Shown here: positions 24,146-39,851 of the stretch, in pieces
Numbering within the stretch: the stretch's first letter is position 1
How the letters are laid out: each line of letters starts with the position of its first letter
Assembly: GCA_016180435.1 (NCBI GenBank)
Contig: JACPBG010000004.1
Span: 59,660 to 123,659 of the forward strand
Source: Candidatus Sungiibacteriota bacterium
Lineage (GTDB): Bacteria > Patescibacteriota > Minisyncoccia > Sungbacterales > HO2-52-23
Reading direction: 5' to 3'
DNA length: 64,000 bases
Program-made: the position numbers and the translations under genes
Notes under the pieces: generated by a model
What the model was told of the DNA's origin: nothing
What the model saw: the letters and a program-made list of their open reading frames with translations, nothing else
Database searches by the model: none

Positions 24146-25346
24146 AATTCACCTCGTTTTTAATGTTTGCGCGGTCTTTGGCAAGAAAGGTCTTGAAGGC
24201 GGACCAGATATCCTCTTTGCGCTGGATTTGCACCGTGAGGAAGTTGGGCTCCTGGATCTGCGAGAAATACTGAATCATGCTGCTGCCGTAGTAGCCCGCG
24301 CCCAAGGGCTTGATTTCGCCGTAGCCAAACAGATTGGATATTTTGGCGAGTTCCCGCGCGGAATTTAGCGCGGCGGTATTGTCGGATTCGAAATTGTCGC
24401 CGTCGGAACAGTGAAAGGCGTAAACGTTCCAGAGAGCGGGATGATATCGTTCATTGATGACCTCCAGGGCCTTGTTGTAGCCGGATGAGATAAAGGTTCC
24501 GCCGGATTCGCCCTTGTGGAAAAACTCTTCCTCGGTCACTTCGCGGGCTTCGGTGTGATGGGCGATGAACACGATCTCGACGTTCTGATAGCGCGTGCGC
24601 AGGAATTGGTACAGTAAAAAGAAGAAACTGCGCGCTAGATACTTTTTCATTGTATCCATGGAGCCGGAAGTATCCATGATGGCCATAACTACGGCGTTGG
24701 ATTCGCGCCGCATCTCTTTGACAACATGGTGGTAGCGCAGATCATCCTCGTGAAAAGGAAAGCGCTCGCCGTGAAGATTCGCGGCACCGGAGCGATGTGC
24801 GGATTTTTTGCGTCGTACTCGGGCACGGGCAGTGCGTTTTTTGTCCAAGCGCACGCGGATGCCTTTTTTTCGGAATCCTTTTTGGCGGAGATGGTCTACC
24901 GTCACGATTTCGCGTAAGTGCTTGCGTTCCAGATCCGGCAGTTCCAGGTCTTCGAACATCACTTCAATCAACTCATCGAGGCTGACCTCGGTCTCGTAGT
25001 AATCAACGCCGGCTTGGTCTCCGGCTTGCTGGCCCTGAGCGCCTTTTTTGCCTTGGCCAATGGTTTGTCCGGGCTGCAGGTCACCGTCCCCGCCTTGTCC
25101 CACGCCGGGCGCGTTCTCTCCGTAAACGAAACGGTATTCTTTTACACCTCGAATCGGCACTTTGATCACGCGGTTTTTGTCTTTGCCGATAATGGATTCT
25201 TCGGCGATGATGTCGGCGATGTTGTTACGAATCGCCTCGCGTACTTTCTGGCGGTGGCGCTGGCGATCCCCGGCCGATCGGTCGCTGCGCTGTCCGGAGG
25301 AAGGGTGATATGGCCGAAATATAGTATCCATCCGATAAACCTCCAA
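24138..25346 (-). CDS. YeaH/YhbH-family protein (DUF444, vWA-like)
   Basis: DTSGSMD...YQNVEIVFIAHHTEAREVTEEEFFHKGESGGTFISSGY...WNVYAFHCSDGDN closely parallels E. coli YeaH core. Confidence 0.8.
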   Translation of the reverse strand: MEVYRMDTIFRPYHPSSGQRSDRSAGDRQRHRQKVREAIRNNIADIIAEESIIGKDKNRVIKVPIRGVKEYRFVYGENAPGVGQGGDGDLQPGQTIGQGKKGAQGQQAGDQAGVDYYETEVSLDELIEVMFEDLELPDLERKHLREIVTVDHLRQKGFRKKGIRVRLDKKRTARARVRRKKSAHRSGAANLHGERFPFHEDDLRYHHVVKEMRRESNAVVMAIMDTSGSMDTMKKYLARSFFFLLYQFLRTRYQNVEIVFIAHHTEAREVTEEEFFHKGESGGTFISSGYNKALEVINERYHPALWNVYAFHCSDGDNFESDNTAALNSARELAKISNLFGYGEIKPLGAGYYGSSMIQYFSQIQEPNFLTVQIQRKEDIWSAFKTFLAKDRANIKNEVNYE

Positions 25347-25435
25347 TTGTAAAAGGCCTGTTTCTGTATTCGTAGTAGTATCATAATCGGCAAATAAAGT
25401 CCACGGATAAAAAAAGACACCCTGGCCGGGTGCCG

Positions 25436-27427
25436 TTATTTAAAAATTCGTCTGGCGTAGCTTAACAGGTTCTGCCAGCAACACTCCCGGTATCCTCTAT
25501 TCTGCAATAGTTCTTTCTTTATTTTGTCTAGGTTCTGCTTGGCTTTGTTGGGGTCAATCCCTTTGTCTTTCTCTTGATCCAGTGAATTCCAACATACTGC
25601 ACGCCTCACTATATCGTGATATTCGCTTATGATTTGCTTGGTCACCGCTTCTTCGAGCGGCAGATGGCTATCAAAATCATACGGCGGATCTCCCGGCAGG
25701 TTAGAATCCACACATTTTCTGAAATCATCGGCAGCTACTCCAATCACCGCGATTTGTTCCTCAATCTTTTCAAGAAAGTCCCGATTTGGATCTATGCACG
25801 TCACCTTGTTTTCGGCGTCCCGGATTTCAACTTTTTGTTTTTTTAAAAGGGCTTTCGTGTGAACCGCATAATCGTTGAAATACGTTTTTTGCCGCTCGGT
25901 GAATGCGGAGGATCCGACATGGCCGCGTACCAAATCTTCAAAGGCGCGATCTTGATACCAATCCCCCTCCAGCGGCGCGTGATCATATTCTCCCGATGAA
26001 TTCTTATCAATGGGGACCCACTTTTTTATCCGCGCCAAAGAGTCGCTTTCAAGGTTTTCAAAATTGGCTTCACGAATCGTCCTGATAAATTGGTTGATGC
26101 CTATGCAATTGTTCTGTTGCCCGGCCAACGCCATCAGATTGCCACCTTGGCGCATAGTCAGGCCGCGCGTTCCGTCTTTAGGCCTTTTATCACAGAGTTC
26201 TCGAAAACTATGTTTGACGAGGAATTTTCTATCGTCAGAAATCATGGCGCCGCCGCCGTAAAAAAGCGCCGCCTCGGCATTTTCGAGCTTCAGCTTATAT
26301 GGATAGTTATCCGTGTCAAGACGAGATGCGGTTATTACCTGACAGGCGGCCTCCTCTACCCACGGGACAAAGTGAAAACTGCGTCCCTCACTCATTGATT
26401 CTTTGCGCTGAATCTTAAGTTCCGCAACCGGATCCATAACCATAGGAAATGTTACGGAAACCACTCGATCAATGAGCGCGTCCTCTTTTGGAAACGCCTC
26501 TTTGATCGTTTTATTACTAATGCTTACAACCGCTATGTCCGGCCACCAGTCGGTTTGATCCCGGCCCTTGAACCAGCCGTCGCTGACCATCCGGCTTAAC
26601 CTGCCGCAAAATTCTAGGTTTTGTGCGGGAAAGTCAACAAAGAAAAGCCCACCGTTGGCCAAATCAATTACTCGGTACCAATCCTCCGGAATTTTTGAAA
26701 CCCTGCCTTCCTTGTCAAATTCCGGTTCAGTCAACCTCCCCTCGATCTGCAACATCCCGATACCTGCCCCCAGGCGGTATTCAGATGATTTTACCGGCAT
26801 ATTTTCCCATTTTCCGCCAAATTCATTTTGAAAACGCTCTTCGCATCCTCGACACAGCCGTCCTCGAAAACGAGACAGGCGAGAAGCTATATTTTCATGG
26901 CATAACACCTTTTGAATATCATCCCGCGGGTGTCCTATTTTTTTCCGCAGTGTACGCGGAATGGCGTTTAACGGATGCTCGTGGTGCGGACATTCCTCAA
27001 GGTAAAAAAAGCTTTCTTCTTCCATTTTGTCCGCGATGAGTTTCAGCCACGTTGTCTTTCCTACCCCGGTTTTGCCGGTGACCTCGAGTATTCTCCGCTC
27101 CATGGCTCCGCCGGATGCTGCTTGTCTGAAGAATTCGCCTGTTTCCGCCAAATAGGGATCAATGCCGACAAGTTCATTTTTGAACAAAGGAAAACGCATA
27201 TACTGCGGCGGTTGATTGTGAAACAGATTTTTCTCACGCGGGGCCTTGAGCTCCGATAGGATTTCCGGCCCCTCCCCGTTTATAGTCGAGGAAATCGCTT
27301 TCCATACTTTGCTGTATGCGCGATCAAGCAGTTCGGGTTTTTCCTGGGCGCACCTTAAAAGGTCTCCAATTGTTTTGATTTCGCTTGACATTTTGTCAGC
27401 TCCTTTTCCGATTCTGATTTTATTCAA
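25436..27427 (-). CDS. PrkA-like paralog (divergent PrkA-family AAA/serine-kinase-like protein)
   Basis: Walker A VTGKTGVGKTTWL, CP..H..PL, FGGKWENMP, FLEKIEEQIAVIGVAADDFRKCV all parallel motifs in the adjacent canonical PrkA. Confidence 0.7.
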   Translation of the reverse strand: MNKIRIGKGADKMSSEIKTIGDLLRCAQEKPELLDRAYSKVWKAISSTINGEGPEILSELKAPREKNLFHNQPPQYMRFPLFKNELVGIDPYLAETGEFFRQAASGGAMERRILEVTGKTGVGKTTWLKLIADKMEEESFFYLEECPHHEHPLNAIPRTLRKKIGHPRDDIQKVLCHENIASRLSRFRGRLCRGCEERFQNEFGGKWENMPVKSSEYRLGAGIGMLQIEGRLTEPEFDKEGRVSKIPEDWYRVIDLANGGLFFVDFPAQNLEFCGRLSRMVSDGWFKGRDQTDWWPDIAVVSISNKTIKEAFPKEDALIDRVVSVTFPMVMDPVAELKIQRKESMSEGRSFHFVPWVEEAACQVITASRLDTDNYPYKLKLENAEAALFYGGGAMISDDRKFLVKHSFRELCDKRPKDGTRGLTMRQGGNLMALAGQQNNCIGINQFIRTIREANFENLESDSLARIKKWVPIDKNSSGEYDHAPLEGDWYQDRAFEDLVRGHVGSSAFTERQKTYFNDYAVHTKALLKKQKVEIRDAENKVTCIDPNRDFLEKIEEQIAVIGVAADDFRKCVDSNLPGDPPYDFDSHLPLEEAVTKQIISEYHDIVRRAVCWNSLDQEKDKGIDPNKAKQNLDKIKKELLQNRGYRECCWQNLLSYARRIFK

Positions 27428-27558
27428 AAGTTAACGTGCTGGGTTAGATATACGACATAATTATATAAAATACAAGGGCGTCTCGTACCAAATAAAATTC
27501 CCGTCACGTAAACGTAACGGGCTACTAAGTTCTAAGATCTAAGTTCTTGGTGCTTGTC

Positions 27559-29493
27559 TTAATCTTTCCACAGGTTATTGGCCGCGTATTTGAGAATCAC
27601 GTCCACGCAGCTCGGGCAGTATCCATGCTCAAGGAGATTTTTGGTCATCATGTCGTATTTTTCCGTTTGCTCCGTGTCGCGCATGCGCGACTTGGTGATA
27701 ACCCGGCTTAGGTCGCGCACCGAAGTGATGAGTTTTTTCTCAATGGCCTCTTTGAGTGGCTCGTAACTGCGGAAGTCAATCTTTTCTTCGCGCCGCTTGG
27801 CTGCCCATAGATAGGAGATCACTTCCTGGCGGAATCCGTCGGCGGCCGAGCCGATGATGGCGATTTGCTCCTCGATTGATTTCATGAATCCTTCGTCGGG
27901 CGCCAACTCTTCTTTGGTGTTGCGATCCTTTACTTTGCTCTTGTTAACGTAGGCCTCGGCGTGATCCAGGTAATTCTGGAATAGCGCCTCCGCCTGCTCC
28001 TGGTAGGAATAGACAAACGCGCGGGTAATCTCCTTTTCCAGCACCTCAAGGTACTCCTTGTGCAGTGTATCCTGGAGAAACTCCAGATACTGCTTGCGCA
28101 TTTCGTCCGACAGATCAGCTTCCTTCACCATGTTGATCAGCGCTTCCCGAACATTGATGGGGTTGATGCAGTTGCCAGCGGTATTGTCGGTGAGCGCGTT
28201 ATCCAAGGCCTTCATTATGAAGCGCGTGGAAATACCGTTCATGCCTTCGCGTTTGGCTGCCTCGCGCAATTCCTGTACATCAACTTTCTTGGTGCGCCCC
28301 TTCTCAAGCACCTCTTCGCCGTTATACAGCTTCAGCTTGGTCATGAGGTCGCACTTGTTGGTGGGCTCCAGGCGCGACAGGATCGCGAACATGGAGGCGA
28401 CCTCCAGGGTGTGCGGCGCCACGTGGGCGCGGAAGTCGGAGTTGCGGATGATCTTCTGATAAATTTTAACTTCTTCGGAGAGGCGCAGGTTGTAGGACAC
28501 GCGAATCACCACAATGCGATCCAGAATCGCTTCGTTGGTGTGGTCTCCCTTGAATTTCTGCCACTCAGCCTCGTTGGAATGGGCCACGATAACTGTGTCC
28601 ACATAGACCAATCCGTGGCGGCCGGGCGCGGGCACAACCTTTTCTTGGGTCGCCGTGATCATGCAATGGAGATACTCGATTTCGTTTTTGAAAACCTCAA
28701 TGAACTCAACTATGCCGCGGTTGCCAACATTAAGCGCGCCATTTAGTTCCAGGACCCGCGGATCGCCCTCGGAATAGAGATCCAACTTCGAGATATCTTC
28801 GCTGCCGATCAGTACGGAAGTATCTTGGTTATTGGAATCCACAGGCGGAACCGATGCGGTACCGACCCGCGCGCGTTTGGAAAATTCCACGGTAGTAATT
28901 GGGAAGTCCTCATACTTGCCGCCGAACTCTTCTTTAAGCCGATAACGGCAGACCGGACACAGGTCGCCTTCAATGTGAATTCCCAGCATCTTTTCAAATT
29001 CTTTTCTCAAGTGGCGCGGTATCAAATGCAGGGGCTCTTCGAACATCGGACAGCCATCAATGGCGAAGATGGGATCGCTTGCCTCCAGGCCTCGATTCAG
29101 TTTTTCCGCAAGCGAGCTTTTGCCGGAACCCACCGGACCCATCAGATAGAGCACCTGGCGGCTTTCTTCACCTTTGAGCGATGCGGCGTGGAAGTAGCGC
29201 ACGATCTGGCTGACTATTTTCTCGATGCCGAAGAACTCATCGGTGAAGAAATCGTAAACCTTGATTGACTCGTCTTTGAAAAGACGTTTAACGTGGGGGT
29301 CGGTGCTTTCCTGAATGTCGCGGACGCCTGCTTTGACGATGATGTCATAAAAACGGGCGTGAGCCAGCTTGGCGATGGAGGGATCTTCCTTGATCTTGTC
29401 GAGGTAGCCGAGTAGCTTCCCGCTCCAATCATTTCGCCTATGGTGTGTTTCTCGGTCCTGTCTGATCAGTTCTCTGTATTCGTCTTCGCTCAT
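27559..29493 (-). CDS. prkA: PrkA-family serine protein kinase (YeaG-like)
   Basis: LYLMGPVGSGKSSLAEKL, FGGKYEDFP, NGALNVGNRGIVEFIEVFK, HCMITATQEK, IVAHSNEAEW, EEQIAIIGSAADGFRQEV. Confidence 0.85.
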   Translation of the reverse strand: MSEDEYRELIRQDRETHHRRNDWSGKLLGYLDKIKEDPSIAKLAHARFYDIIVKAGVRDIQESTDPHVKRLFKDESIKVYDFFTDEFFGIEKIVSQIVRYFHAASLKGEESRQVLYLMGPVGSGKSSLAEKLNRGLEASDPIFAIDGCPMFEEPLHLIPRHLRKEFEKMLGIHIEGDLCPVCRYRLKEEFGGKYEDFPITTVEFSKRARVGTASVPPVDSNNQDTSVLIGSEDISKLDLYSEGDPRVLELNGALNVGNRGIVEFIEVFKNEIEYLHCMITATQEKVVPAPGRHGLVYVDTVIVAHSNEAEWQKFKGDHTNEAILDRIVVIRVSYNLRLSEEVKIYQKIIRNSDFRAHVAPHTLEVASMFAILSRLEPTNKCDLMTKLKLYNGEEVLEKGRTKKVDVQELREAAKREGMNGISTRFIMKALDNALTDNTAGNCINPINVREALINMVKEADLSDEMRKQYLEFLQDTLHKEYLEVLEKEITRAFVYSYQEQAEALFQNYLDHAEAYVNKSKVKDRNTKEELAPDEGFMKSIEEQIAIIGSAADGFRQEVISYLWAAKRREEKIDFRSYEPLKEAIEKKLITSVRDLSRVITKSRMRDTEQTEKYDMMTKNLLEHGYCPSCVDVILKYAANNLWKD

Positions 29494-29684: not shown

Positions 29685-29929
29685 TCAACCCCCCAGTTTT
29701 GTACAATACGAGATTAGCCCCAAATAATCCTTAACTATACGGTATCAAAGGTAATTCCTCGACTCGCTCGGCTCGCTTGGAGAATATTGTTCGAGTTTAT
29801 CGAGAACCTTCCTAAGGTAACCGCGCAGCAAGCTGACGCGGAATTATCAAGTTAAAAAACCCATGAAATTCCATGGGCCCATTTTATTGAGGTGAAGACG
29901 GGGCGAGCAAGCCCGCGGTTTTCTGGGGC

Positions 29930-29962
29930 GCGGATAAAAAATCGGGCGAGGCCCGATTAAAT
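29930..29962 (-). terminator. rho-independent terminator downstream of Pup-like locus (AATCGGGCctcGCCCGATT + T-run on minus strand)
   Basis: hairpin followed by TTTTTTATCC on coding strand. Confidence 0.6.
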
Positions 29963-31674
29963 TAACTCATATTTATTTCATCTTCATTTTCCGGATGTGT
30001 ATCGGATATCGCCGGTCTGAATTTTTTGGCGGCGCGATTTACTTGCGCCAGCGCTTTTCTGTCGCGGGCGGATATTTTGTAACGCTCCGGGTCGAGGTTT
30101 TTGATATATAGGATTTTGGCGGATCTCTTGCCTGCATTAAATACAAAAGTAAACTCTTCCCAAACAGAGTCAACCAGGCATTTTTTATCGAGCTCGCGGG
30201 AAAAAATTATCCGGAGTATTTCTTCGCGCCAGTTAGCGCGCGTGCGTTCCGGCGGATTTTGCGTGGCCCACCTGACAAGATTTTCCGGAAATAATTTTTT
30301 AATAAGGCCGGCGCGAAGATACTGGCCGTAGGGACTTTGGGCGGTGTCCATGAATGCGTACTCGGATATGAACTCAAGAATATCTCGCAAAACATCCTGG
30401 TTGGAAGATGTGGGGATTTTTCCAACCGGCCGTTCTTCGCCGCGCGGCAGGATAGCTTCCGGATCAAACCCTCGGCTTTTCAGATACGGCATGATAAAAT
30501 AATGCAAAATCGCGGCCCAATCCAGGAATTGCGCAAGATACGGGAGGTCCCAGTGGGCGATCGCATCAATTATGTTTTCCCAGAGATTAAGGGCAAGTTT
30601 CCGTTCCGGGCTGAAGGATTGGCGTCCCGGCCCCGCAAAAAATTCCTGCGCCTGTTTTATGTAGAAGCGCTGGAAATCAAGCGCGTTCCAGCGTAAACCC
30701 TCTTCCAGAAGCGAAACCGGATTTTTTGATCCGGGGTCGGCGTTAAAAAAAAGCGAGGCCTCGAATAAATCCATCGGATAAATGTTCGGCGGGATCTTTA
30801 GAAATTTCTCTTCGGCCATGGTCAGAATAATGTCCAGCGTTGCATATTTCAAAAACAATTGCCATGCGGACATCGTGGAATTTCCTGACACATCATGGTG
30901 GCGTCTCCATCTCGTTTTGTCTGCGTATTGAGAATCTTTTTTTGAGAAGAAACTGGGTTTGTCTTCGGCCTTCCTGTTATTTTTCATGACCTCGGCGCGT
31001 TGGGAGAGGACAAACTGCAGGGTGTTGTCCGTTGCATTGATTTTTATCCAGCCGTTTCCAATAAGGCACCAGCGCGATATTAAAAACGGTATAATTAATT
31101 CGAAAAAATCACTGCGTTTGGAAAAGACCGATTTTTTTACCAAATAATTGGCATGCGAGCCCCAGCTGTTAACATCTAAATCCACCATCGGATACAATTC
31201 CACGTCGTAACAACAATTTCGGTTGGTCTTATAAAGTTTGAAATCCAAACCGGTTTTTCTTTTCAGGCGCCGCATCATCTGCGTCATAATCTGGAGCCCC
31301 GCGCTCTCAAAAAGCGCAAGTTCCAGGGCGCCCAGGCACTCCGGAGTGGAATATTCCACATGTTCGTTATCTATATAGATGATTCCTTGATTAGGAAGAA
31401 CGGCTTTGGGACGCCGGTTTGAGAAGCTGTCGTCATCCGGGTTGATTAGCCGGCGGCGGTCTTGTTTTGAAACCGCAGCGCGCAGAATCAATGGCTGATT
31501 TTCCGATTCCTTGACAAGAAGAAAAGGCTCCGGCGAACTTAATTCATTTTCGGCGCCCATGATGCGATGGATTATTCTTTCGGTTTTTTGCGAACCCATG
31601 CGTGTACCGTATTGAATTGGCAAGTTCCTGAATAAAGCATCGCAAGATATACGAAATAAAGCAAGCGGCGGCAT
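29962..31674 (-). CDS. PafA/Dop-family (Pup ligase/deamidase family) homolog 2; start may be internal Met (~31599)
   Basis: RIMGAENE (cf. RIMGIETE), IYIDNEHVEYSTPEC (cf. LYLDVGSHPEYATAEC), WGSHANYLV (GCHENYL), FVLSQRAE (LSQRA), RRHHDVSGNSTMS (RRLHVIVGDSNMS). Confidence 0.7.
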   Translation of the reverse strand: MPPLALFRISCDALFRNLPIQYGTRMGSQKTERIIHRIMGAENELSSPEPFLLVKESENQPLILRAAVSKQDRRRLINPDDDSFSNRRPKAVLPNQGIIYIDNEHVEYSTPECLGALELALFESAGLQIMTQMMRRLKRKTGLDFKLYKTNRNCCYDVELYPMVDLDVNSWGSHANYLVKKSVFSKRSDFFELIIPFLISRWCLIGNGWIKINATDNTLQFVLSQRAEVMKNNRKAEDKPSFFSKKDSQYADKTRWRRHHDVSGNSTMSAWQLFLKYATLDIILTMAEEKFLKIPPNIYPMDLFEASLFFNADPGSKNPVSLLEEGLRWNALDFQRFYIKQAQEFFAGPGRQSFSPERKLALNLWENIIDAIAHWDLPYLAQFLDWAAILHYFIMPYLKSRGFDPEAILPRGEERPVGKIPTSSNQDVLRDILEFISEYAFMDTAQSPYGQYLRAGLIKKLFPENLVRWATQNPPERTRANWREEILRIIFSRELDKKCLVDSVWEEFTFVFNAGKRSAKILYIKNLDPERYKISARDRKALAQVNRAAKKFRPAISDTHPENEDEINMS

Positions 31675-31710
31675 GAAAAAACGGGGAATATTCCCCGTAG
31701 AAATAAGTAT

Positions 31711-31911
31711 TTATTCGCCTTTTTCCTGTATGTGGCGGCGCCTTTTGCGTCGGGCCTTTTTCTTCAGATCCTTCTTGTTTTTCTTGAGTACCTCGTTGAT
31801 CCTTTTCTTTATTTCCTCCGCTTCCTCAACTGTGGCTCCAGGATTATTTATCACACCCCGCTCGGGGATATTGAATTCCGGGCGCTCTATTTTCTCGCGT
31901 TTTACCGGCAT
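31711..31911 (-). CDS. candidate Pup/UBact-like small protein modifier (66 aa, ends -QEKGE)
   Basis: located between two PafA/Dop homologs; helical segment ATVEEAEEIKKRINEVLKKN resembles Pup Mpa-binding helix TEETDDLLDEIDDVLEENAE; C-terminal Gly-Glu like Pup -GGQ/-GGE. Confidence 0.5.
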   Translation of the reverse strand: MPVKREKIERPEFNIPERGVINNPGATVEEAEEIKKRINEVLKKNKKDLKKKARRKRRRHIQEKGE

Positions 31912-31974
31912 AAAGACCTAATTTGCGCATATTTATCGGTTCTCATAACATTTTACGCCATATCCGAAAAATCA

Positions 31975-33567
31975 TCAAACGCAGAATTTCACAACTTTAA
32001 CCGGAATCATTCTTTCGGCATCGGCCAGAAATTTTTCAAGCGGCAGAGCCAGAAGCTGATCGGCAACTCCTTGGTTCCACATAAGAGTCGGGTCTTGGAA
32101 ATAAAGTTCTGCGCGGACAGTTCTTTTGGCCGGATTTTTAAATGAAATCATGTGCCAATAATTAGAGTCCGCAATATTTTTTTTGAAGCGGCGCGCCACA
32201 TTCATAATCCAGCGCGAGCGGGTTAGGGGCGGGGCGCCCACGGCGCCGTTGATATCCTGGTCGTGCGTAATGCGTCCGTTTTTGGCGAAAATTTCGCGCT
32301 GGAACACGCTTTCCGGATCATTATCATGGTATTCGTAGTCAAGCCCCATGGCTAAATCGCTTTTCCAGCCCCCTCGCTCTTGGGAGACGGCGTTTTGTAT
32401 GAATAGGAATTTGGTCGGCCAATCCAAAACGCCATAAAGCGATTCGTAGTCGCGCCGGAAAAGTTTTTTAAGAATATCGGCCAGGCGCGCTAAAACATCA
32501 TAAAGCACTTCATTTTCCGGATGATATTCATCCAGATAATTTCCGAAAAGTTCGTAATAATCCCAAAGGCAATCAAGCGCGAGGCGCGTTCTTTTTTTAT
32601 TTCGCAAAGTAACGCGGTGCGTCATGTCAAGCGAGCGCGAAATTGCCCAAAATTCTTTAACAGGATCCATGAGGGCGAAGCGGTTGTCCAGTACCTCATC
32701 CTCAAGCATCATAAAAAGTATGGATGTTAAGCCAATTTTGAGATACTCCGGAATTTCCAGCATATTGGAATCGCCGGGAATAACATGTATTCGGCGGAAG
32801 CGTCCGGCGTCGGCATACGGAGCGTCGCGGGTGTTATATATTCCCCGATCCTCCATGGTGTCCAGTCCCCACTCGCAGGTGAAAAAATCAGCGCGCTGGG
32901 AAATCTGGTAAGGCGCCTCCGGGGTGCAGTTGTCTGCCCCGATTTTGCCGGCTCCGATAAGAGGCGTGCGCAACACCAGCCACGGCACCGTATGCGATAT
33001 TAATTTTTCTAAAGGAATCCGGCGCAAAACCGTATAATTTTCGTGGCAAGCAAAAGAGTTGCGGGCGCCGGAGCCAGGAATATAATCTTGCGGTTTTCCG
33101 GCAACGTTATTTCTAATTACGGCGTATTTTTTTCTGTGAACCTCCTCGTGTTTTTTTCGCAAGAAATCAATTATGCGGTAACAGGCGCGATTCCAGGTAA
33201 TGAGCATTTTCGGATCAGAGCAGATCGGAGTTGAAATCTCGACATGCGCGCCATCAAGATATAGCCGGGCGCCGTTGGCAAGCAATATATTTTCACGCGA
33301 GCACCAGGAGTTCTCCTCAAAAAAATCATGATTTTTAGCGTCAGCATTTTTGGAAAGATCGCTAAACAACTCCGCTCGTATTTGCGGGCTTAATCTCTCC
33401 TGCGGATTCCACGGGATCATGCATGCATCCGGCATCCATTCGGGTTGGATGGATTGAATGAATTTGGCGTTGGCCGATATAGGGCCTGCGCGGGATGACA
33501 GATCAATGATCCCGAATTCGGTTTCAATCCCGCACATCTTGGGAATGGCGCGTGATTCTTTTGGCAT
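31975..33567 (-). CDS. PafA/Dop-family homolog 1 (clear member)
   Basis: MCGIETEFGI, NGARLYLDGAHVEISTP, FACHENY, ISQRADF, YNTRDAPYADAGRFRRIHVIPGDSNM. Confidence 0.85.
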   Translation of the reverse strand: MPKESRAIPKMCGIETEFGIIDLSSRAGPISANAKFIQSIQPEWMPDACMIPWNPQERLSPQIRAELFSDLSKNADAKNHDFFEENSWCSRENILLANGARLYLDGAHVEISTPICSDPKMLITWNRACYRIIDFLRKKHEEVHRKKYAVIRNNVAGKPQDYIPGSGARNSFACHENYTVLRRIPLEKLISHTVPWLVLRTPLIGAGKIGADNCTPEAPYQISQRADFFTCEWGLDTMEDRGIYNTRDAPYADAGRFRRIHVIPGDSNMLEIPEYLKIGLTSILFMMLEDEVLDNRFALMDPVKEFWAISRSLDMTHRVTLRNKKRTRLALDCLWDYYELFGNYLDEYHPENEVLYDVLARLADILKKLFRRDYESLYGVLDWPTKFLFIQNAVSQERGGWKSDLAMGLDYEYHDNDPESVFQREIFAKNGRITHDQDINGAVGAPPLTRSRWIMNVARRFKKNIADSNYWHMISFKNPAKRTVRAELYFQDPTLMWNQGVADQLLALPLEKFLADAERMIPVKVVKFCV

Positions 33568-33649
33568 ATTCCGCCCCTTTTAAAAAGCTGATCCCAGCGT
33601 AGCAGGTTTTGGGCCAAAATAAAATACCCCCGCGCGCTGCGTAGGGGCG

Positions 33650-33856
33650 TTATTTTGGATGGTTGCGATTTTCGCGGATGTCCTGGAATCTTCGGAGCAT
33701 CGCTTTTTGGGCGGATTCCAAAATATCAGACCGCAGGATTTTGAGCGATTGGTCAGTTCCGTGTTCAAGCCGTTTTAGTGCGGCCAGCTTGGCATTGCGG
33801 ACCGTTTCCTCGATCATGGCGCCGGTTATTACGTCAATTCCCTGTGACCTTTGCAT
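33650..33856 (-). CDS. small hypothetical helical protein overlapping AAA gene 3' end
   Basis: ORF only. Confidence 0.25.
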   Translation of the reverse strand: MQRSQGIDVITGAMIEETVRNAKLAALKRLEHGTDQSLKILRSDILESAQKAMLRRFQDIRENRNHPK

Positions 33857-34994
33857 TTCCGTTGTCCGCTTTCAGTTCATCCATGTCAAATGGCAGCTCG
33901 GGCAGGAGGTATTTTCTAAAAATATCTTTGGTGCCGCTGGTGCCTGGGGCCTTGATTTCAAGTATAAGATCAATGCGGCCCGGCCGTATCACGGCGCGGT
34001 CAAAAATGTCGCGGCGGTTTGAAGCAAAAATAACCAAGACATTATCGAGTTTTTCCAGGCCGTCAAGTTCTCCCAGAATTTGCGATACCAGCGGGTCAAA
34101 AAGCTGGGAATTGATTCCGGCCGAGTCGCGCGGGCGCAAAATGGACTCCGCTTCGTCAATAAATATTACGCACGATTCGCGCCGCGCTTCGGCAAAAACC
34201 ATGCGAACTTTTTCTTCTCCGGTGCCGATCAGCGGCCTAAGAAACTCCGCGCTGTTAAAATAAAGGAATCGTCGTCCGAGTTCTTTGGCCAGCGCTTTGG
34301 CCAGCATGCTTTTTCCGCAGCCCGGGGGGCCGATTAGCAGCACGCCCTTGGTGGGACGTAAATTTAACTTTCGGAAGGCGTCCGGGAAGCGTTGCGGATA
34401 TTCTATGGCCGCGCGCAGTTCCTCGATTTCTTTATCCAGGCCGCCGATATCCGAAAAACTTACATCCAGCGCATAGTCCTTGGCAAATGAGGGCGGTGTC
34501 GGCTCGGGCAGTTTTTCAAAAAGAAAACCAGACGCTGAATCCATCAGGAGCTTATCGCCCGGTTTCAATTCTTGTGACCGAAGGGACGAGGCCAGAACGC
34601 CAACCGGCTCTCGGGATTGATGTGCAACCAACGCGCGACCGTTATCCAGTTTTTCTTTAAATGTAACGGCAACGCCCGAACGGATGGGTGCGCGTACTTT
34701 GCCGATAATGTTCATGGCCGAATTTAAAATTACCACATCTCCGGGTTCCAGCGCGTCAGCGCCCCGTGCATTATAGAATGGATTACCTACCCTTATGGGT
34801 ACTGGTCGGCCGTCGGCAAAAACATCTACGGTTTTGTCGTCATTATGTTGCCCTAAAATTCCATAATAAAAAGGCGGTTTTGAAATTTTTTCCGTGTACG
34901 CCAGGGCGTTTTTAAGCGCTTGCTCAAGTTCGGAATTCCTTCTTTCCAGAAGAACAATCTCGCGCAGCGTGTGGGCAGATTTATTACGGGCCAT
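33834..34994 (-). CDS. short proteasomal-ATPase-like AAA+ protein (coiled coil + single OB-like + AAA), Mpa/ARC/PAN-like but lacking C-terminal HbYX/GQYL tail
   Basis: Walker A GPPGCGKSMLAK, Walker B VIFIDEAES, second region RPGRIDLILE; N-term coiled coil LREIVLLERRNSELEQALKNA. Confidence 0.75.
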   Translation of the reverse strand: MARNKSAHTLREIVLLERRNSELEQALKNALAYTEKISKPPFYYGILGQHNDDKTVDVFADGRPVPIRVGNPFYNARGADALEPGDVVILNSAMNIIGKVRAPIRSGVAVTFKEKLDNGRALVAHQSREPVGVLASSLRSQELKPGDKLLMDSASGFLFEKLPEPTPPSFAKDYALDVSFSDIGGLDKEIEELRAAIEYPQRFPDAFRKLNLRPTKGVLLIGPPGCGKSMLAKALAKELGRRFLYFNSAEFLRPLIGTGEEKVRMVFAEARRESCVIFIDEAESILRPRDSAGINSQLFDPLVSQILGELDGLEKLDNVLVIFASNRRDIFDRAVIRPGRIDLILEIKAPGTSGTKDIFRKYLLPELPFDMDELKADNGNAKVTGN

Positions 34995-35092
34995 TTGTCG
35001 ATTTTTCCTGGAAAAGTTCTACTTTATTCTTATCATCCCGCGTCAAATAGCGCAAATTAAAAATCGGCCCGGCGGGGTCTTAGTTTTTGAAA

Positions 35093-35164
35093 TGGGGATG
35101 GCAGGGATCGAACCTGCGACGGCCGTCTTATAAGGGCGGTGCTCTACCACTGAGCTACATCCCC
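35093..35164 (-). tRNA. tRNA with anticodon TAT (UAU; Ile-type), acceptor GGGGATG/CATCCCC
   Basis: anticodon loop CTTATAA read by hand from cloverleaf; one C:A mismatch in anticodon stem. Confidence 0.6.
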
Positions 35165-35246
35165 ACAAAAAAGCTTGCCCTCCTAAATTTTGCAATACAA
35201 AATTTTGGAGGGTGAAGAAGGACAAGCCAAGCCACATGCTCATAAA

Positions 35247-37082
35247 TTATTCCTTCACCAACTTTTCAAATTCATCCCGCTCAATTGTTTCTCTTTCCAC
35301 AAGTATTTTGGCGATTTCATCAAGTTTCGCGCGGCGGCGCGTTAAAATTTCCCGCGCGCGTTTCTCCGCACCGGTAATCAATTTTTTGATTTCCTCGTCA
35401 ATAATGCGCGCGGTTTCTTCCGAATAATTGCGTTCGGTGGTGAGTTCGCGTCCCAAAAACACCAACTCTTCTTTCTCGCCAAGCGTCATGGGGCCGACTT
35501 TATCCGACATCCCGAAGCGCATGACAAGCGATCGCGCCAGGTCGCTGGCTTTTTTCAGGTCATCGTGCGGTCCGGTGGTGATGTCCGCAAAGACCAATTT
35601 TTCCGCAACAAACCCGCCCAGAGCCACTGCCAATTCATTCAGCAGATAACTTCTGGAATGCAGATGCCGGTCTTCGGTCGGAAGTTTCAGGGTATAACCG
35701 GCGGCGCGGCCTCGCGACACTATGGATACTTTATGGATCGGATCAACGCCCTTAAGGGATGCGGCCACCAGAGCGTGTCCTCCTTCGTGGTAAGCCGAGA
35801 TTTTTTTCTCTTCGGGCGACAAAATATGGCTTTTTCTTTCCGGCCCCAACATAACTTTTTCAATGGAATTAATAAGATCCATTTGTGATACTTTTTTCTG
35901 ATTTTCGCGCGCAGCCAGTATCGCCGCTTCATTCACCAGATTGGCCAAATCCGCGCCGGAAAATCCCGGGGTGCGTTCGGCAATTCTCCGCAGATTTACA
36001 TCATTGGCCAGGGGTTTATTAGCCGAATGAATATGCAAAATCGCTTCGCGGTCATTAATGTCCGGCAAATCCAGCGTAACCCTACGGTCAAACCTGCCGG
36101 GACGTAAAATCGCGGGGTCCAAGACGTCCGGACGATTCGTGGCCGCCATAACTATGACGCGGTCATCCGTTTCCATGCCATCCATTTCTACAAGAATCTG
36201 ATTCAGAGTTTGTTCGCGCTCATCATGACCTCCGCCAAGTCCGGCTCCGCGGATTCTTCCTATGGCATCCAATTCGTCAATAAAAATTATGGAGGGTGCG
36301 GCTTTTTTGGCAAGCCGGAATAAATCTCGGGTGCGTGAAGCCCCGACTCCCACGAACATTTCAATAAATTCCGAGGCGGACATGTGGAAAAACGGAACCC
36401 CGGCTTCTCCCGATACTGCCTTGGCAAGCAGTGTTTTTCCGGATCCCGGGGGACCCATCAAAAGCACGCCTTTCGGTATTTTGGCGCCGATGTCAAGGAA
36501 TTTCTTGGGGCTTTTCAGAAAATCCACTATTTCTTTTAGTTCCTCTTTGGCTTCTTTTACTCCGGCCACGTCTTTAAACATCACCCGTTCCTTTTTATTG
36601 TCCGGTGAGATCATGCGCGCCTTGGATTGGCCGAAGGTAAAGGCCTGCATGGCTCCGCGCTGGACCTGGCGCGCCGTAATCCAGAAAAAAAGAGCGATGA
36701 GAAGAACCGGCCCCAGGATCGGCAAAATAAATCCGAGAAAGAAATTCCATACCCCCTGGTTTTTGATCCCGATTTTTACCTCTTTTAATTTTTCTGGATC
36801 CACCCCGTAGTTTCTTAGGGTTTCGGTAAGTTCGGCCTGCGGCTCTTTTTCCGCGCGAAGTTCCTCACCCGAACGAGTGCGGATTTCAAGAGTAGAGTCC
36901 ACGATAGTGATCTCCGCAATTTCGCCCGCATTAACTTGGGCCGCAAGATCGGACAGCGGAATTTCTTTCACCTCACGGAGCGCTCCCGCCAACATAGAAT
37001 AAAATACTGAAATAGACATCAGTATAACCAGCGCCCACAAAAAATTTTTAGATAGATTTTTCATCCCGCACATAACCTGCAC
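35247..37082 (-). CDS. ftsH: ATP-dependent zinc metalloprotease FtsH
   Basis: N-term 2 TM, Walker [33 protein letters not shown] zinc motif. Confidence 0.9.
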
Positions 37083-37407
37083 AATTTAGTGGGTCTTAAA
37101 AGACCGCAAAATATAATTGTACAAATTTTTATGGTTAATCCCACACAAAAAACAAGTACTTTTAAATTTGAGCCAAGTGCAAGTTATGTGCGGGATTCAT
37201 GCGTTTTGTCATCATACACTAAAAAATACTACTGGACAAGTAGGAAAAAAATCAATAAAATTCCTATGTTATATGATCCCGTCCGTAGTCCAATTTTACT
37301 CTCCAACCCGCCTTGGCTATATAGCAAAATCCGGATTCCACCCGCATTCTTAATTTAGATATAGTGGATAATTTTACCTTGCAGTTCGGCTGTCATGTGT
37401 GATATAA

Positions 37408-38181
37408 TTGGAGGTACACATGAATGCGCCGAAAGAACTAAAAACTAAAGCGATTTATTTGAGAAAACGTGGTTTGAGTTATAACGAAATCCGACATCAC
37501 GTGCCGGTTGCAAAAAGCACATTAAGCTTGTGGCTTAAAAGCACCCCCCTCTCAAAAGAGCATAAACGTAGATTATATACCAAAAATATTCTTCTTCTTT
37601 CACGCGGACCAAATAGTCAACACGAAAGAAGAAAAAGGGAGATTGAAGCAATCATAGCACGGGCACATAGTGAGATTCATTTGCCGATTCAGCCGGAAAC
37701 ATTCCAGCTTATGGGCGCGGCGTTATATTGGGCAGAGGGAAGCAAGACGAAGAAATTTGAGTTTACAAATTCAGACCCGCATTTTATTCTTTTTATGGTT
37801 AGATGGGCAGAAAAAATTTTTGGTCTTTCCAGTAAAACCTTTAGTGCTACGTTAAATATCTATCCGCAACAAAACGAGGTACGGCTCAAAAAATTCTGGT
37901 CGGAACTGACAAACATTCCATTACATAATTTCGGAAAAAGTTTTGTTAAGCCGCTAAGCAAGAATTACAAGAAAAATAATCTTTACTACGGAACGATAAA
38001 AGTTTATGTGCCGCGAGGTACTGATATGCGTCATCGCGTTTTTGGATGGATTGAAGCCGCCTTGAAAAATATAGAACCGAAAGTAAATTCTATAACCAAG
38101 CGCTGGATATCTTTAAAAAAAACGCCGCGTCCTGTTAATTTATCCCCCCATAACTCAATTGGTAGAGTACCCGCCTCTTAA
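37408..38181 (+). CDS. HTH-containing protein with LAGLIDADG-like motif (homing-endonuclease-like); 3' end overlaps tRNA-Lys
   Basis: N-term HTH LRKRGLSYNEIRHHVPVAKSTLSLWLK; LMGAALYWAEGSK resembles single LAGLIDADG motif. Confidence 0.4.
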   Translation: MEVHMNAPKELKTKAIYLRKRGLSYNEIRHHVPVAKSTLSLWLKSTPLSKEHKRRLYTKNILLLSRGPNSQHERRKREIEAIIARAHSEIHLPIQPETFQLMGAALYWAEGSKTKKFEFTNSDPHFILFMVRWAEKIFGLSSKTFSATLNIYPQQNEVRLKKFWSELTNIPLHNFGKSFVKPLSKNYKKNNLYYGTIKVYVPRGTDMRHRVFGWIEAALKNIEPKVNSITKRWISLKKTPRPVNLSPHNSIGRVPAS

Positions 38182-38216
38182 GCGGAATGTTCCAGGTTCG
38201 AGCCCTGGTGGGGGGA
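38144..38216 (+). tRNA. tRNA-Lys (anticodon CTT)
   Basis: acceptor CCCCCCA/TGGGGGG, anticodon loop CTCTTAA, T-loop TTCGAGC. Confidence 0.8.
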
Positions 38217-38423
38217 AAATGCGGAGCATTTTCCGAGTTCACTTCCTGCTCTCCGTTCATTCATGAACGCAGAAATTGAAGTTAACTCCGGGCTGTGCCT
38301 AGGAGGCACGGAAATGATTGCCATTATTTTCCCCACTTATTGAACGATGCGCGAACTTATAAAAAAATGTGCTTGACTCAAAAAATGCGTATAATATTGA
38401 TATAAATCAAGTATTATAAAAGC

Positions 38424-39299
38424 ATGAAAAAAAATAAAGGGCCGGACAATCAAATTGCAATTTTTGAAAACTTTAAAATCCGCCGTCACTATGACGAAAA
38501 GGCGGAGATTTGGTATTTTTCAGTAATTGACATTATCCGAGTATTGATTGGTCAATCGGGTTATCAAGCCGCCAGAAATTATTGGAAAGTGCTTAAAAGC
38601 CGTCTGAAAACGGAGGGAAGTGAACTGGTTACAAAATGTAACCGGTTGAAAATGACAGCAGAAGACGGAAAGATGAGAGAAACCGACGTTGCAAACATCG
38701 AAACTATTTTACGATTAGTTCAATCCGTTCCTAGTCCAAAGGCCGAGCCGATAAAGCTTTGGCTGGCTAAAGTCGGCCATGAAAGAATTCAGGAGTTGGC
38801 TGATCCGGAAAAATCTTTAAATCGTGCCAGAGAAAATTGGAAAAAGCACGGCCGCAGTGGAAAGTGGATCCAGCAGAGGATGATGGGGCAGGAAACTAGA
38901 AATAAGTTAACTGATTATTGGAGCGGCCATGGCATTAAAGAAAAAGATGAGTTTGCCATTCTTACTAACATCATCCACCGGGAATGGTCTGATTTGACGA
39001 TCAAAGAGCACAAGAATTTGAAAGGTTTGAAAACGCAGAATCTGCGCGACCACATGAATGAAGCCGAACTAATTTTTACGGCTTTAGCCGAGTTGTCCAC
39101 TCGGCAAATCGCGGAAACGACGGAAGCCATGGGCGTAGATGAAAATAAAGTGGCCGGTAAAAGAGGCGGCGGCATTGCTAAGAAAGCGAGAATTGATTTG
39201 GAAAATAAAACCGGAAGGAAGGTGGTCACCGGAGACAATTATTTAAAGAATGCTGAAAGTAAAAAATTGCCGGAACAAGGCGTTCCGGTAAAGCTCTAA
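38424..39299 (+). CDS. Bro-N domain protein (DinD-like / antirepressor-like)
   Basis: IAIFENFKIRRHYDEKAEIWYFSVIDIIRVL matches Bro-N N-terminal pattern. Confidence 0.5.
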   Translation: MKKNKGPDNQIAIFENFKIRRHYDEKAEIWYFSVIDIIRVLIGQSGYQAARNYWKVLKSRLKTEGSELVTKCNRLKMTAEDGKMRETDVANIETILRLVQSVPSPKAEPIKLWLAKVGHERIQELADPEKSLNRARENWKKHGRSGKWIQQRMMGQETRNKLTDYWSGHGIKEKDEFAILTNIIHREWSDLTIKEHKNLKGLKTQNLRDHMNEAELIFTALAELSTRQIAETTEAMGVDENKVAGKRGGGIAKKARIDLENKTGRKVVTGDNYLKNAESKKLPEQGVPVKL

Positions 39300-39851
39300 C
39301 TATTTTGGGAGAACAACGTATCCGATTTGTTTTTGCCCGGTAACACACGGCAGAAACTGCGTATAAAACGGCTCATTAATTCCTGATGCATTATTGGGCA
39401 TCGCGTGCCGCATAATCAGCCGGAGTTCATGGACGGTTTTGGGTTTTCTCTTTCGGATGAGTTTCGTGGCCGCCAGACACTCCTGATTGAAACGCGGACC
39501 AATCAGATGTTTATATCGCACCGCGAGATAAACAGTCCGCGCCAGCTGGTCTCGGAAAATTCTCCGGACACTGCGATCTTGTGTCGTGACCGGATCAAAC
39601 GCCAATCGGGCATAAGGGAATGGAATTAGCCATTCTATTTCCACATCGTCGTCCGGAACAAGCGATATATCGGTAAGCACCCAGCCCACGTACATATTGC
39701 GGTGATGCTTGTCTTCCACTGTTTTAATGGCATCTGCGATAGGAATCAGGCCGTTTTCTCCGTCAGCCGCGATTTCAACCCTGCGTTTTTCAAGTCCGGT
39801 ACGTTTTTCCGGAGGAGTTTTGGGATCGGCAAAAGTTGCTCTCCACTTCAT
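39300..39851 (-). CDS. hypothetical protein
   Basis: ORF only. Confidence 0.35.
   Translation of the reverse strand: MKWRATFADPKTPPEKRTGLEKRRVEIAADGENGLIPIADAIKTVEDKHHRNMYVGWVLTDISLVPDDDVEIEWLIPFPYARLAFDPVTTQDRSVRRIFRDQLARTVYLAVRYKHLIGPRFNQECLAATKLIRKRKPKTVHELRLIMRHAMPNNASGINEPFYTQFLPCVTGQKQIGYVVLPK

Follow-up and report, generated by a model that had tools for sequence, protein, structure and literature searches.

Can a proteasomal ATPase be miniaturized and still act without a proteasome? The question is raised by a 64,000-nucleotide (nt) stretch of DNA from a Candidatus Sungiibacteriota bacterium (assembly GCA_016180435.1, contig JACPBG010000004.1; hereafter the window, meaning the whole stretch), the minus strand of which carries an ATG-to-TGA open reading frame (ORF) of 386 amino acids (aa) with the C-terminus ...ADNGNAKVTGN. 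An earlier note on this DNA described its product as a mini proteasomal-ATPase-like AAA protein with one OB-like segment and no proteasome-docking tail, and proposed an unfoldase that works alone or hands its substrates to FtsH or another protease. The ORF exists as described, but its length and its C-terminus are products of a 65-nt gap: in six public assemblies the gene is intact and encodes 469 aa. This intact protein is probably a ring ATPase of the ARC/Mpa type that belongs to a compact Pup-like tagging operon, without a proteasome, in Candidatus Sungbacteria (candidate phyla radiation [CPR]/Patescibacteria). The central proposal of the note still holds for the 469-aa protein: an Mpa-like ATPase that has no docking tail and lies in a proteasome-free context.

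A 65-nt gap in the ATPase gene

The 386-aa ORF is overlapped by a 68-aa ORF in the +1 frame (Table 1) that reads ...SQGIDVITGAMIEETVRNAKLAALKR..., resembling the end of an AAA lid, and the gene therefore looked broken rather than miniature. A protein search using the conceptual fusion of both frames as query recovered the window protein, annotated at NCBI as 'AAA family ATPase [Candidatus Sungbacteria bacterium]' with 386 aa, as well as three orthologs (469, 469 and 479 aa) that each cover 100% of the fusion. In the protein alignment the orthologs read through ...NGNTK-TFTDRLIDEVTAYMFKEARTFI-SQGIDV... in a single frame, whereas the window passes from NAK to SQGIDV with a change of frame. Consistent with this, the DNA alignment of the window with loci L001, L083 and L084 (81-87% nucleotide identity) contains a single indel, a 65-column gap. 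The missing 65 nt (CCTTTACAGACAGCCTCATTGACGAGGTAACCGCATATATGTTCAAAGAGGCGCGCGCTTTAATA) code for residues 383-404 (AFTDSLIDEVTAYMFKEARALI), which form a lid helix in the structure predicted by AlphaFold2 for ortholog P0002 (helices H381-399 and H401-405).

Intact copies of the gene were located through the exact sequence of a neighbouring 66-aa protein, which is present on 15 contigs. Six independent assemblies (L087-L092), derived from two run series (SRR4343428, SRR4343430, SRR12113431, SRR12113401, SRR12113383 and SRR12113390), match window positions 29900-37100 with 100.000% identity over 2,999 + 3,948 nt and 0 mismatches. The 65 nt are present in 6/6 of them, and the encoded protein of 469 aa has the C-terminus ...FQDIRENRNHPK (...RENRNHPK). 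Four orthologs at a greater distance, of 469-479 aa, are intact as well. Since six otherwise identical assemblies carry the 65 nt, neither the 386-aa length nor the NAKVTGN end is a property of the gene, and the 'mini' size and tail read from the window alone do not hold.

The out-of-frame remainder of the gene shows no second mutation, and its stop codon sits at the orthologous place. With respect to L084, 14 of its 21 differences fall at codon position 3, and the ratio of synonymous to nonsynonymous differences is 11:8, compared to 14:7 between two intact orthologs, the pattern of a sequence that has not decayed and still evolves as coding DNA. The frameshift also costs the remaining lid helices, leaving a 386-aa product without three lid helices, including the sensor-2 region. 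Regardless of whether the gap arose in assembly or is carried by a rare real allele, the 386-aa protein is not the product of this gene in this population. Two other explanations for the break were discarded: a programmed +1 frameshift or genuine split gene, because the other copies carry 65 more nt in one frame, and a homopolymer sequencing error, because the gap is a clean 65 nt with no flanking repeat.

A separate irregularity affects the same part of the gene. The ATPase orthologs of L083 (95-1504) and L084 (7232-8641) differ at 6 codons in their first 1,146 nt and at 21 codons in their last 195 nt, and over these last 195 nt the L084 translation equals that of the more distant L001. This mosaic pattern points to recombination or chimeric assembly, with a putative breakpoint near the site of the 65-nt gap in the window.

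It is unlikely, on balance, that the deletion is real in the sampled population, which would make the ATPase gene a fresh pseudogene or split gene in an operon that works without its ATPase. The deletion does stand in the deposited sequence of this metagenome-assembled genome (MAG), its junction shows no repeat or homopolymer typical of sequencing error, and the mosaic divergence of L083 and L084 suggests that the region may be prone to recombination. This must be set against the six intact assemblies, which are otherwise 100% identical to the window over the compared stretch, and against the preserved stop codon and lack of further mutations in the tail. In either case, a product deprived of three lid helices and the sensor-2 region is not a functional 'mini' enzyme.

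Family assignment and departures from Mpa

Profile, sequence and fold searches agree that the ATPase is closest to Mpa/ARC, and not to CDC48 or Vps4/CdvC, assignment to which would have refuted the reading of the earlier note. The top NCBIfam model is TIGR03689 (pup_AAA, 'proteasome ATPase') both for the 386-aa ORF (280 bits, with a match that ends before the lid, at profile position 397/512) and for the intact protein (301 bits, profile positions 12-486 of 512), which bears out the proteasomal-ATPase-like character ascribed to it by the earlier note. Lesser models match the intact protein with 192/182/144/138 (PAN), 166 (CDC48), 140 (FtsH) and 90 bits (CdvC), and pup_AAA leads all other families by more than 100 bits. 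Among PDB sequences, the best single-stretch match is Mycobacterium tuberculosis Mpa (224-226 bits, residues 38-430), and CDC48/VAT/p97 entries outrank it solely by summing two ~130-bit domain matches.

The AlphaFold2 model of P0002, computed on a 15-sequence alignment (mean predicted local distance difference test score 78.3), consists of a helix (residues 2-38), two beta-barrel regions (46-99 and 108-161), an AAA core (~180-346) and a final segment made of helices only (352-468). Mpa chains fill the first 30 places among the Foldseek matches of this model in the PDB (E 7e-31 to 6e-25, 31-33% identity), and a group of eukaryotic Rpt subunits comes next (E ~1e-23). Assignment to CDC48 was rejected on the single AAA module, where CDC48 has an N-domain and two tandem rings, and on a score of 166 bits against a cutoff of 802. 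The match to Vps4/CdvC, which pairs an MIT domain with a Vps4-type AAA module, at 90 bits against a cutoff of 650, is confined to AAA core residues 177-363, and PAN/Rpt assignment is at odds with the two OB domains, the lack of a C-terminal hydrophobic-Tyr-X (HbYX) motif and scores far under the 500-750-bit cutoffs.

The intact protein shares its domain order with Mpa/ARC (PDB 5KWA, 5KZF, 7PX9) at 31-37% identity: a helix at the N-terminus is followed by tandem OB domains, a single classical AAA module and a helical lid. In both cases the gene lies directly upstream of a Dop-like gene. Where one OB-like segment had been seen before, there are two, each scoring above its Pfam cutoff (Table 1). 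The Walker A, Walker B, sensor-1 and Arg-finger motifs are all intact and conserved in the alignment with canonical relatives. By analogy with Mpa, the N-terminal helix is presumed to pair into a coiled coil and to bind the tag. The lack of a Pfam AAA_lid_3 match, considered as a sign of a missing lid, was dropped because the canonical ARC P0183 goes without that match too.

The differences with respect to Mpa/ARC are those of a reduced protein. At 469 aa, compared to ~590-610, the ATPase is ~120-140 aa shorter, and alignment with canonical full-length relatives locates what is absent from the short family: 60-90 N-terminal residues, corresponding to the extended portion of the coiled coil; an insert of ~14 residues behind the Walker A helix; the lid beta-hairpin insert (FLEVTYANGDKEVLYFKDF); and the final ~60 residues (LPNTTNPDDWARISG...IV.IR...GQYL). 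The lid hairpin and the last ~60 residues jointly constitute the Mpa beta-grasp domain and docking tail, the parts that touch the alpha ring in the structure of Mpa bound to 20S (PMC8755798; for GQYL also PMC8223512). Both are absent here, and the model is all-helical beyond residue 352, so that there is no beta-grasp domain. The host is also distinct, being a CPR bacterium, and no prcBA lies in the operon.

The true C-terminus, ...RENRNHPK, has no GQYL or penultimate-Tyr end, and the orthologs terminate in ...EERANQK, ...ERTRQK, ...HARHRK and ...ERHHG, as opposed to G-x-Y-L/F in 77/80 canonical-locus Mpa genes from the genome scan. The absence of a hydrophobic-Tyr-X tail, originally noted for the truncated ORF, is therefore a feature of the intact protein as well.

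A further departure concerns pore loop 1, which reads K-Y/F-V-G in Mpa/ARC, P-L-I-G in the window and P-L-L-G in P0002-P0004. In a census of 112 double-OB Mpa-like sequences, 107 present [KM]-[YWF]-x-G and all five exceptions come from the clade of the window; P0123, a more distant short form of 475 aa, retains K-Y-L-G. The corresponding M. tuberculosis Mpa loop is K340-F341-V342-G343, in which K340 is invariant among Actinobacteria and unfolding is lost when F341 is mutated (PMC8755798). By analogy, the aliphatic loop suggests a weaker grip than that of Mpa, and a low-processivity remodeller would be likelier than a strong unfoldase.

PAN/Rpt ATPases, which rank second by profile (192 bits) and by fold (E ~1e-23), are of similar size (~400-470 aa) and, like this protein, combine a single AAA module with an OB ring and a short coiled-coil helix at the N-terminus. 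PAN, however, docks on the 20S proteasome, carries an HbYX motif at its C-terminus and contains just one OB domain, whereas the ATPase has two OB domains and no HbYX.

Members of this family are very scarce. When 1.84 billion cluster representatives were searched exhaustively by HMMER with the N-terminal 175 aa, 214 proteins were returned at E<=1e-3, only one cluster (P0003) falling below 1e-30, and P0123 was the only other match aligning from its own N-terminus at ~470 aa; two clusters at 50% identity represent the family among the 1.84 billion representatives. Scanning metagenomes with the family-specific lid region yielded three loci. The family alignment recovered only canonical Mpa (33-37% identity) from the GTDB genomes, in a scan that generic Walker-A matches saturated; a word-indexed search with the N-terminal 186 aa, which missed the known orthologs too, gave one partial actinobacterial match; and exact-sequence look-ups of P0001 and P0002 returned no record. 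The sole match labelled 'Patescibacteria' (L067) was rejected as a 576-aa, canonical-size gene that is not ligase-linked.

Three more Mpa-like proteins, of 490-553 aa, are devoid of the G-x-Y-L tail (P0266, P0189 and P0143, in loci L095, L096 and L097), and their genes have no proteasome genes in the short flanks available. One lies beside a 595-aa Pup_ligase, one beside Clp_N/TPR proteins, and one stands isolated among a phage capsid gene, a transposase and integrases. Outside proteasome operons, the docking tail seems to have disappeared more than once, which fits a loss of the tail going with the loss of the partner.

The ligase operon, its tag candidate and the surrounding genes

On the minus strand, the ATPase gene is followed by a Dop-like ligase paralog, a 66-aa ORF and a second ligase paralog, and this block recurs in L001, L083, L084 and L087-L092. 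An ATPase gene followed by a Pup_ligase is also found in the distant L085, and a Pup_ligase stands beside the tail-less Mpa-like gene of L095. Canonical loci present the order Mpa(GQYL)-Dop-Pup-PrcB-PrcA-PafA, and prcBA is absent from this canonical operon slot in 9/9 loci of the clade. No PF00227 match was found in the 20 window ORFs of 160-310 aa. Likewise, in tblastn searches eight PrcA/PrcB probes, taken from four loci of distant phylogenetic origin, had no match below E=0.4 in the window, L001 and L082-L084, while the positive control yielded 1e-45 to 1e-175, including 1e-65 to 1e-71 across phyla. The claim that prcAB is absent hence holds for the window and the operon.

The 66-aa protein encoded between the two ligase paralogs, annotated as 'hypothetical protein HYT98_04100', is confined to this clade, with 79-82% identity among loci and an invariant RRHIQEKGE C-terminus. 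Pup proteins have been characterized as having 50-90 residues, a C-terminal G-[EQ] and a gene next to PafA-family ligases (Iyer et al. 2008; PMC2588565), and the 66-aa ORF presents this size, a G-E end and two PF03136 neighbours in every locus. On these positional and terminal-residue grounds it is a probable tag and at most a possible homologue of Pup. Besides the G-E end and the place between Pup_ligase paralogs, it has in common with Pup/UBact a hydrophobic register like that of the Pup helix, and it differs from Pup in a 7-residue Arg/Lys-rich insertion ahead of the tail. The sequence KKKARRKRRRH precedes ...IQEKGE, and the hydrophobic register of the Mpa/PafA-binding helix of Pup is seemingly kept with its charges inverted. 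UBact-type tags reportedly occur in some candidate phyla, including Parcubacteria.

A side result of the comparison concerns two Nitrospirales loci (L032 and L048), in which the canonical Mpa ends in GHYF, not GQYL. Their dop-prcB interval contains no small G-[EQ] ORF and no UBact gene; because no such ORF lies between dop and prcB, their tag gene must be elsewhere in those genomes.

The genes surrounding the operon are listed in Table 1. Directly downstream, positions 22685-29493 of the minus strand hold a stress/starvation-associated PrkA module with a tandem PrkA duplication, an adjacency that is kept in L084 and L087 (close relatives only). On the upstream side, the tRNA-Ile gene has the rare anticodon UAU, and several public assemblies call a spurious 66-aa ORF over it (L088 1604-1804; window 35043-35243). 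Beyond ftsH, the ThyX (Thy1) homolog has about twice the usual ThyX length and looks tandem-duplicated or fused. The interval between both genes (37408-39851) comprises a 257-aa ORF without Pfam match, a Bro-N protein (38424-39299) and a 183-aa ORF without match, and in L084 only a 183-aa ORF occupies it. The Bro-N domain is typical of phage and mobile elements, and the interval may be a small mobile insertion.

Table 1. Coordinates of the ATPase gene, its domains and motifs, the ligase operon and the neighbouring genes in the window.
Feature	Position	Strand	Evidence and remarks
ATPase gene, full extent in window	33650..34994	(-)	Split by 65-nt gap; intact gene 1,410 nt, 469 aa
386-aa ORF	33834..34994	(-)	Residues 1-382 authentic; final VTGN and stop out of frame
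Gap junction	33847..33848	(-)	65 nt absent between 33848 and 33847
Out-of-frame gene remainder, 68-aa ORF	33650..33856	(-)	Final lid helices from 33847 downward, SQGIDVITGAMIEETVRNAK...RENRNHPK
N-terminal helix, aa 2-38, presumed coiled-coil/tag-receptor element	34881..34991	(-)	AlphaFold2 DSSP; alignment
First OB domain, aa 44-101	34692..34865	(-)	PF17758 Prot_ATP_ID_OB_N, 30 bits, cutoff 23.4; beta strands 46-99 in model
Second OB domain, aa 110-163	34506..34667	(-)	PF16450 Prot_ATP_ID_OB_C, 48 bits, cutoff 23; strands 108-161 in model
AAA alpha/beta module, aa 218-347	33954..34343	(-)	Pfam PF00004, 109 bits
Walker A GPPGCGKS	34308-34331	(-)	Within AAA module
Pore loop 1 R-P-L-I-G, aa 253-257	34224..34238	(-)	Ungapped alignment columns; non-aromatic, no preceding Lys
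Walker B IFIDEAE	34146-34166	(-)	Within AAA module
Sensor-1 FASN	34017-34028	(-)	Within AAA module
Arg fingers RPGRID	33969-33986	(-)	Within AAA module
Pup_ligase paralog 1, Dop-like, 530 aa	31975..33567	(-)	PF03136 302 bits; TIGR03688 Dop 258 vs PafA 204 bits, both under cutoff
Basic tag candidate (Pup/UBact-like), 66 aa	31711..31911	(-)	Between two Pup_ligase paralogs; C-terminus ...RRHIQEKGE
Pup_ligase paralog 2, 570 aa	29962..31674	(-)	PF03136 188 bits; Dop 129 vs PafA 126 bits, ambiguous
PrkA, 644 aa	27559-29493	(-)	
Divergent PrkA-like, 663 aa	25436-27427	(-)	
DUF444/YeaH, 402 aa	24138-25346	(-)	
SpoVR, 486 aa	22685-24145	(-)	
tRNA-Ile (anticodon UAU)	35092..35165	(-)	ARAGORN; between ftsH and ATPase gene
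FtsH, 611 aa	35247..37082	(-)	TIGR01241 783 bits; not shown to belong to the system
ThyX-type gene, 566 aa	39939-41639	(-)	Two Thy1 stretches

Mode of action and significance

By analogy with Mpa (PMC8755798), six copies of the ATPase would form a ring in which the N-terminal helices pair into coiled coils. These coiled coils would bind the helical stretch of the tag attached to modified proteins, and the disordered end of the tag, or the substrate, would enter the OB and AAA central pore, where ATP hydrolysis may remodel, disassemble or unfold the tagged protein without handing it to a 20S proteasome. The Dop-like enzyme would then recycle the tag, as in the Corynebacterium ARC proposal. Given that there is no GQYL tail, no beta-grasp domain and no prcBA in the operon, work without a 20S partner is the best reading. 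In this respect the proposal of the earlier note that the protein works alone is supported, and its unfoldase part is uncertain in view of the non-aromatic pore loop.

The closest functional parallel is Corynebacterium glutamicum, which has no prcBA and in which ARC has been proposed to disassemble pupylated ferritin (PMC8223512, PMC5515868). In both systems a Pup-type operon lacks prcBA, and the action proposed for its ATPase on tagged proteins involves no degradation. The corynebacterial ARC, however, is a canonical-type actinobacterial protein that lost its partner secondarily, whereas the present one is structurally reduced, with a changed pore loop, and is accompanied by a basic rather than an acidic tag candidate.

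Several observations weigh against a proteasome-less Pup-like system. The pup_AAA score of the intact protein (301 bits) lies below the NCBIfam equivalog cutoff of 505 (504.75) bits, and pore loop 1 does not have the aromatic residue whose mutation ends unfolding in Mpa. The search for proteasome genes in this genome covered 64 kb of a ~198-kb contig. Regarding the tag, the 66-aa ORF has no Pup or UBact match among Pfam or NCBIfam profiles at E<=10, and hhalign against 14 canonical-locus Pups gives a weak match (P=0.004, probability 8%), which pairs residues 31-51 with Pup 41-61, the ILDEIDxVLExNAEEF helix. Furthermore, the isoelectric point (pI) of the 66-aa protein is 10.3 and its last 35 residues carry a net charge of +11, compared to pI 4-5 and net charges of -5 to -8 in Pups.

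These points bear differently on the alternatives. The pore loop lends itself to a reading, possible though doubtful, in which the ATPase is not a translocating unfoldase and acts instead as an ATP-dependent tag receptor, scaffold or ligase regulator, or as a weak segregase that loosens complexes. The P-L-I/L-G loop shared by the window, P0002, P0003 and P0004 speaks in its favour when read against the Mpa data on F341 and K340 described above, but the motifs for binding and hydrolysing ATP are all conserved, as is the double-OB entry ring, and the distant short form P0123 keeps K-Y-L-G. Moreover, some AAA rings, Cdc48 D1 among them, still contact their substrate through aliphatic pore-loop residues. 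A second possibility, that the ATPase serves a 20S proteasome encoded elsewhere in the genome through a non-canonical interface, draws on the 64-kb scope of the proteasome search and on the precedent of the Cdc48-like Cpa, which binds 20S without a GQYL motif (PMC8223512). We regard it as most improbable: GQYL and the beta-grasp hairpin, through which Mpa touches the alpha ring of the 20S, are both missing, prcBA is absent from its canonical slot in all nine clade loci, and no proteasome genes are seen in the short flanks of the other tail-less Mpa-like genes either.

The idea that the ATPase unfolds tagged proteins and passes them to the neighbouring FtsH or another protease appears very improbable as well. 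The ftsH gene does lie 250 nt upstream on the same strand, both in the window and in the close relatives L084 and L087-L092. Nevertheless, the tRNA-Ile gene sits between the two, and their adjacency has been seen within one narrow clade only (81-100% nucleotide identity). In the distant short form of L085, rpL7/L12 and an unknown ORF take the place of ftsH upstream, while the downstream Pup_ligase is conserved. In addition, FtsH has its own AAA unfolding ring, and the C-terminus of the ATPase is without an evident docking motif. The hand-off suggested by the earlier note has nothing but adjacency in its favour, and this adjacency does not extend to L085.

Within the preferred reading of an ARC/Mpa-type ATPase in a proteasome-less tagging operon, a more specific proposal may be put forward only tentatively: that this is a remodelled, proteasome-free Pup-like system with a charge-inverted tag and a stripped-down ARC with a non-processive aliphatic pore, in which the ATPase would be a tag-dependent segregase or regulator and not a degradation motor.

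Pupylation without a proteasome and Pup systems outside the Actinobacteria were already known (PMC2588565, PMC8223512), and among the papers searched none links pupylation with CPR/Patescibacteria. New, in Sungbacteria, are a reduced ARC (no beta-grasp domain, no GQYL, short coiled coil), its non-aromatic pore loop and a basic tag candidate. The locus is also a cautionary case, in which a remarkable-looking 'mini' enzyme was made by 65 bases missing from one MAG, the public annotation of which carries the truncated 386-aa protein.

Since the family is very rare, the impact of these results is specialist rather than broad. The intact gene extends the Pup-type tagging machinery into the CPR, in a reduced and proteasome-independent form: an ATPase that has lost all 20S-contact elements, with a change in the pore-loop residue considered essential for unfolding, and with a presumed tag of charge opposite to that of Pup. 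If these features are functional, the operon would offer a natural minimal system in which to ask what pupylation does without a proteasome, and which parts of Mpa serve tag recognition as opposed to degradation. Should the tentative proposal of a stripped-down ARC acting as a segregase prove true, it would add to prokaryotic protein tagging a functional type of its own, found in ultra-small episymbiotic bacteria.

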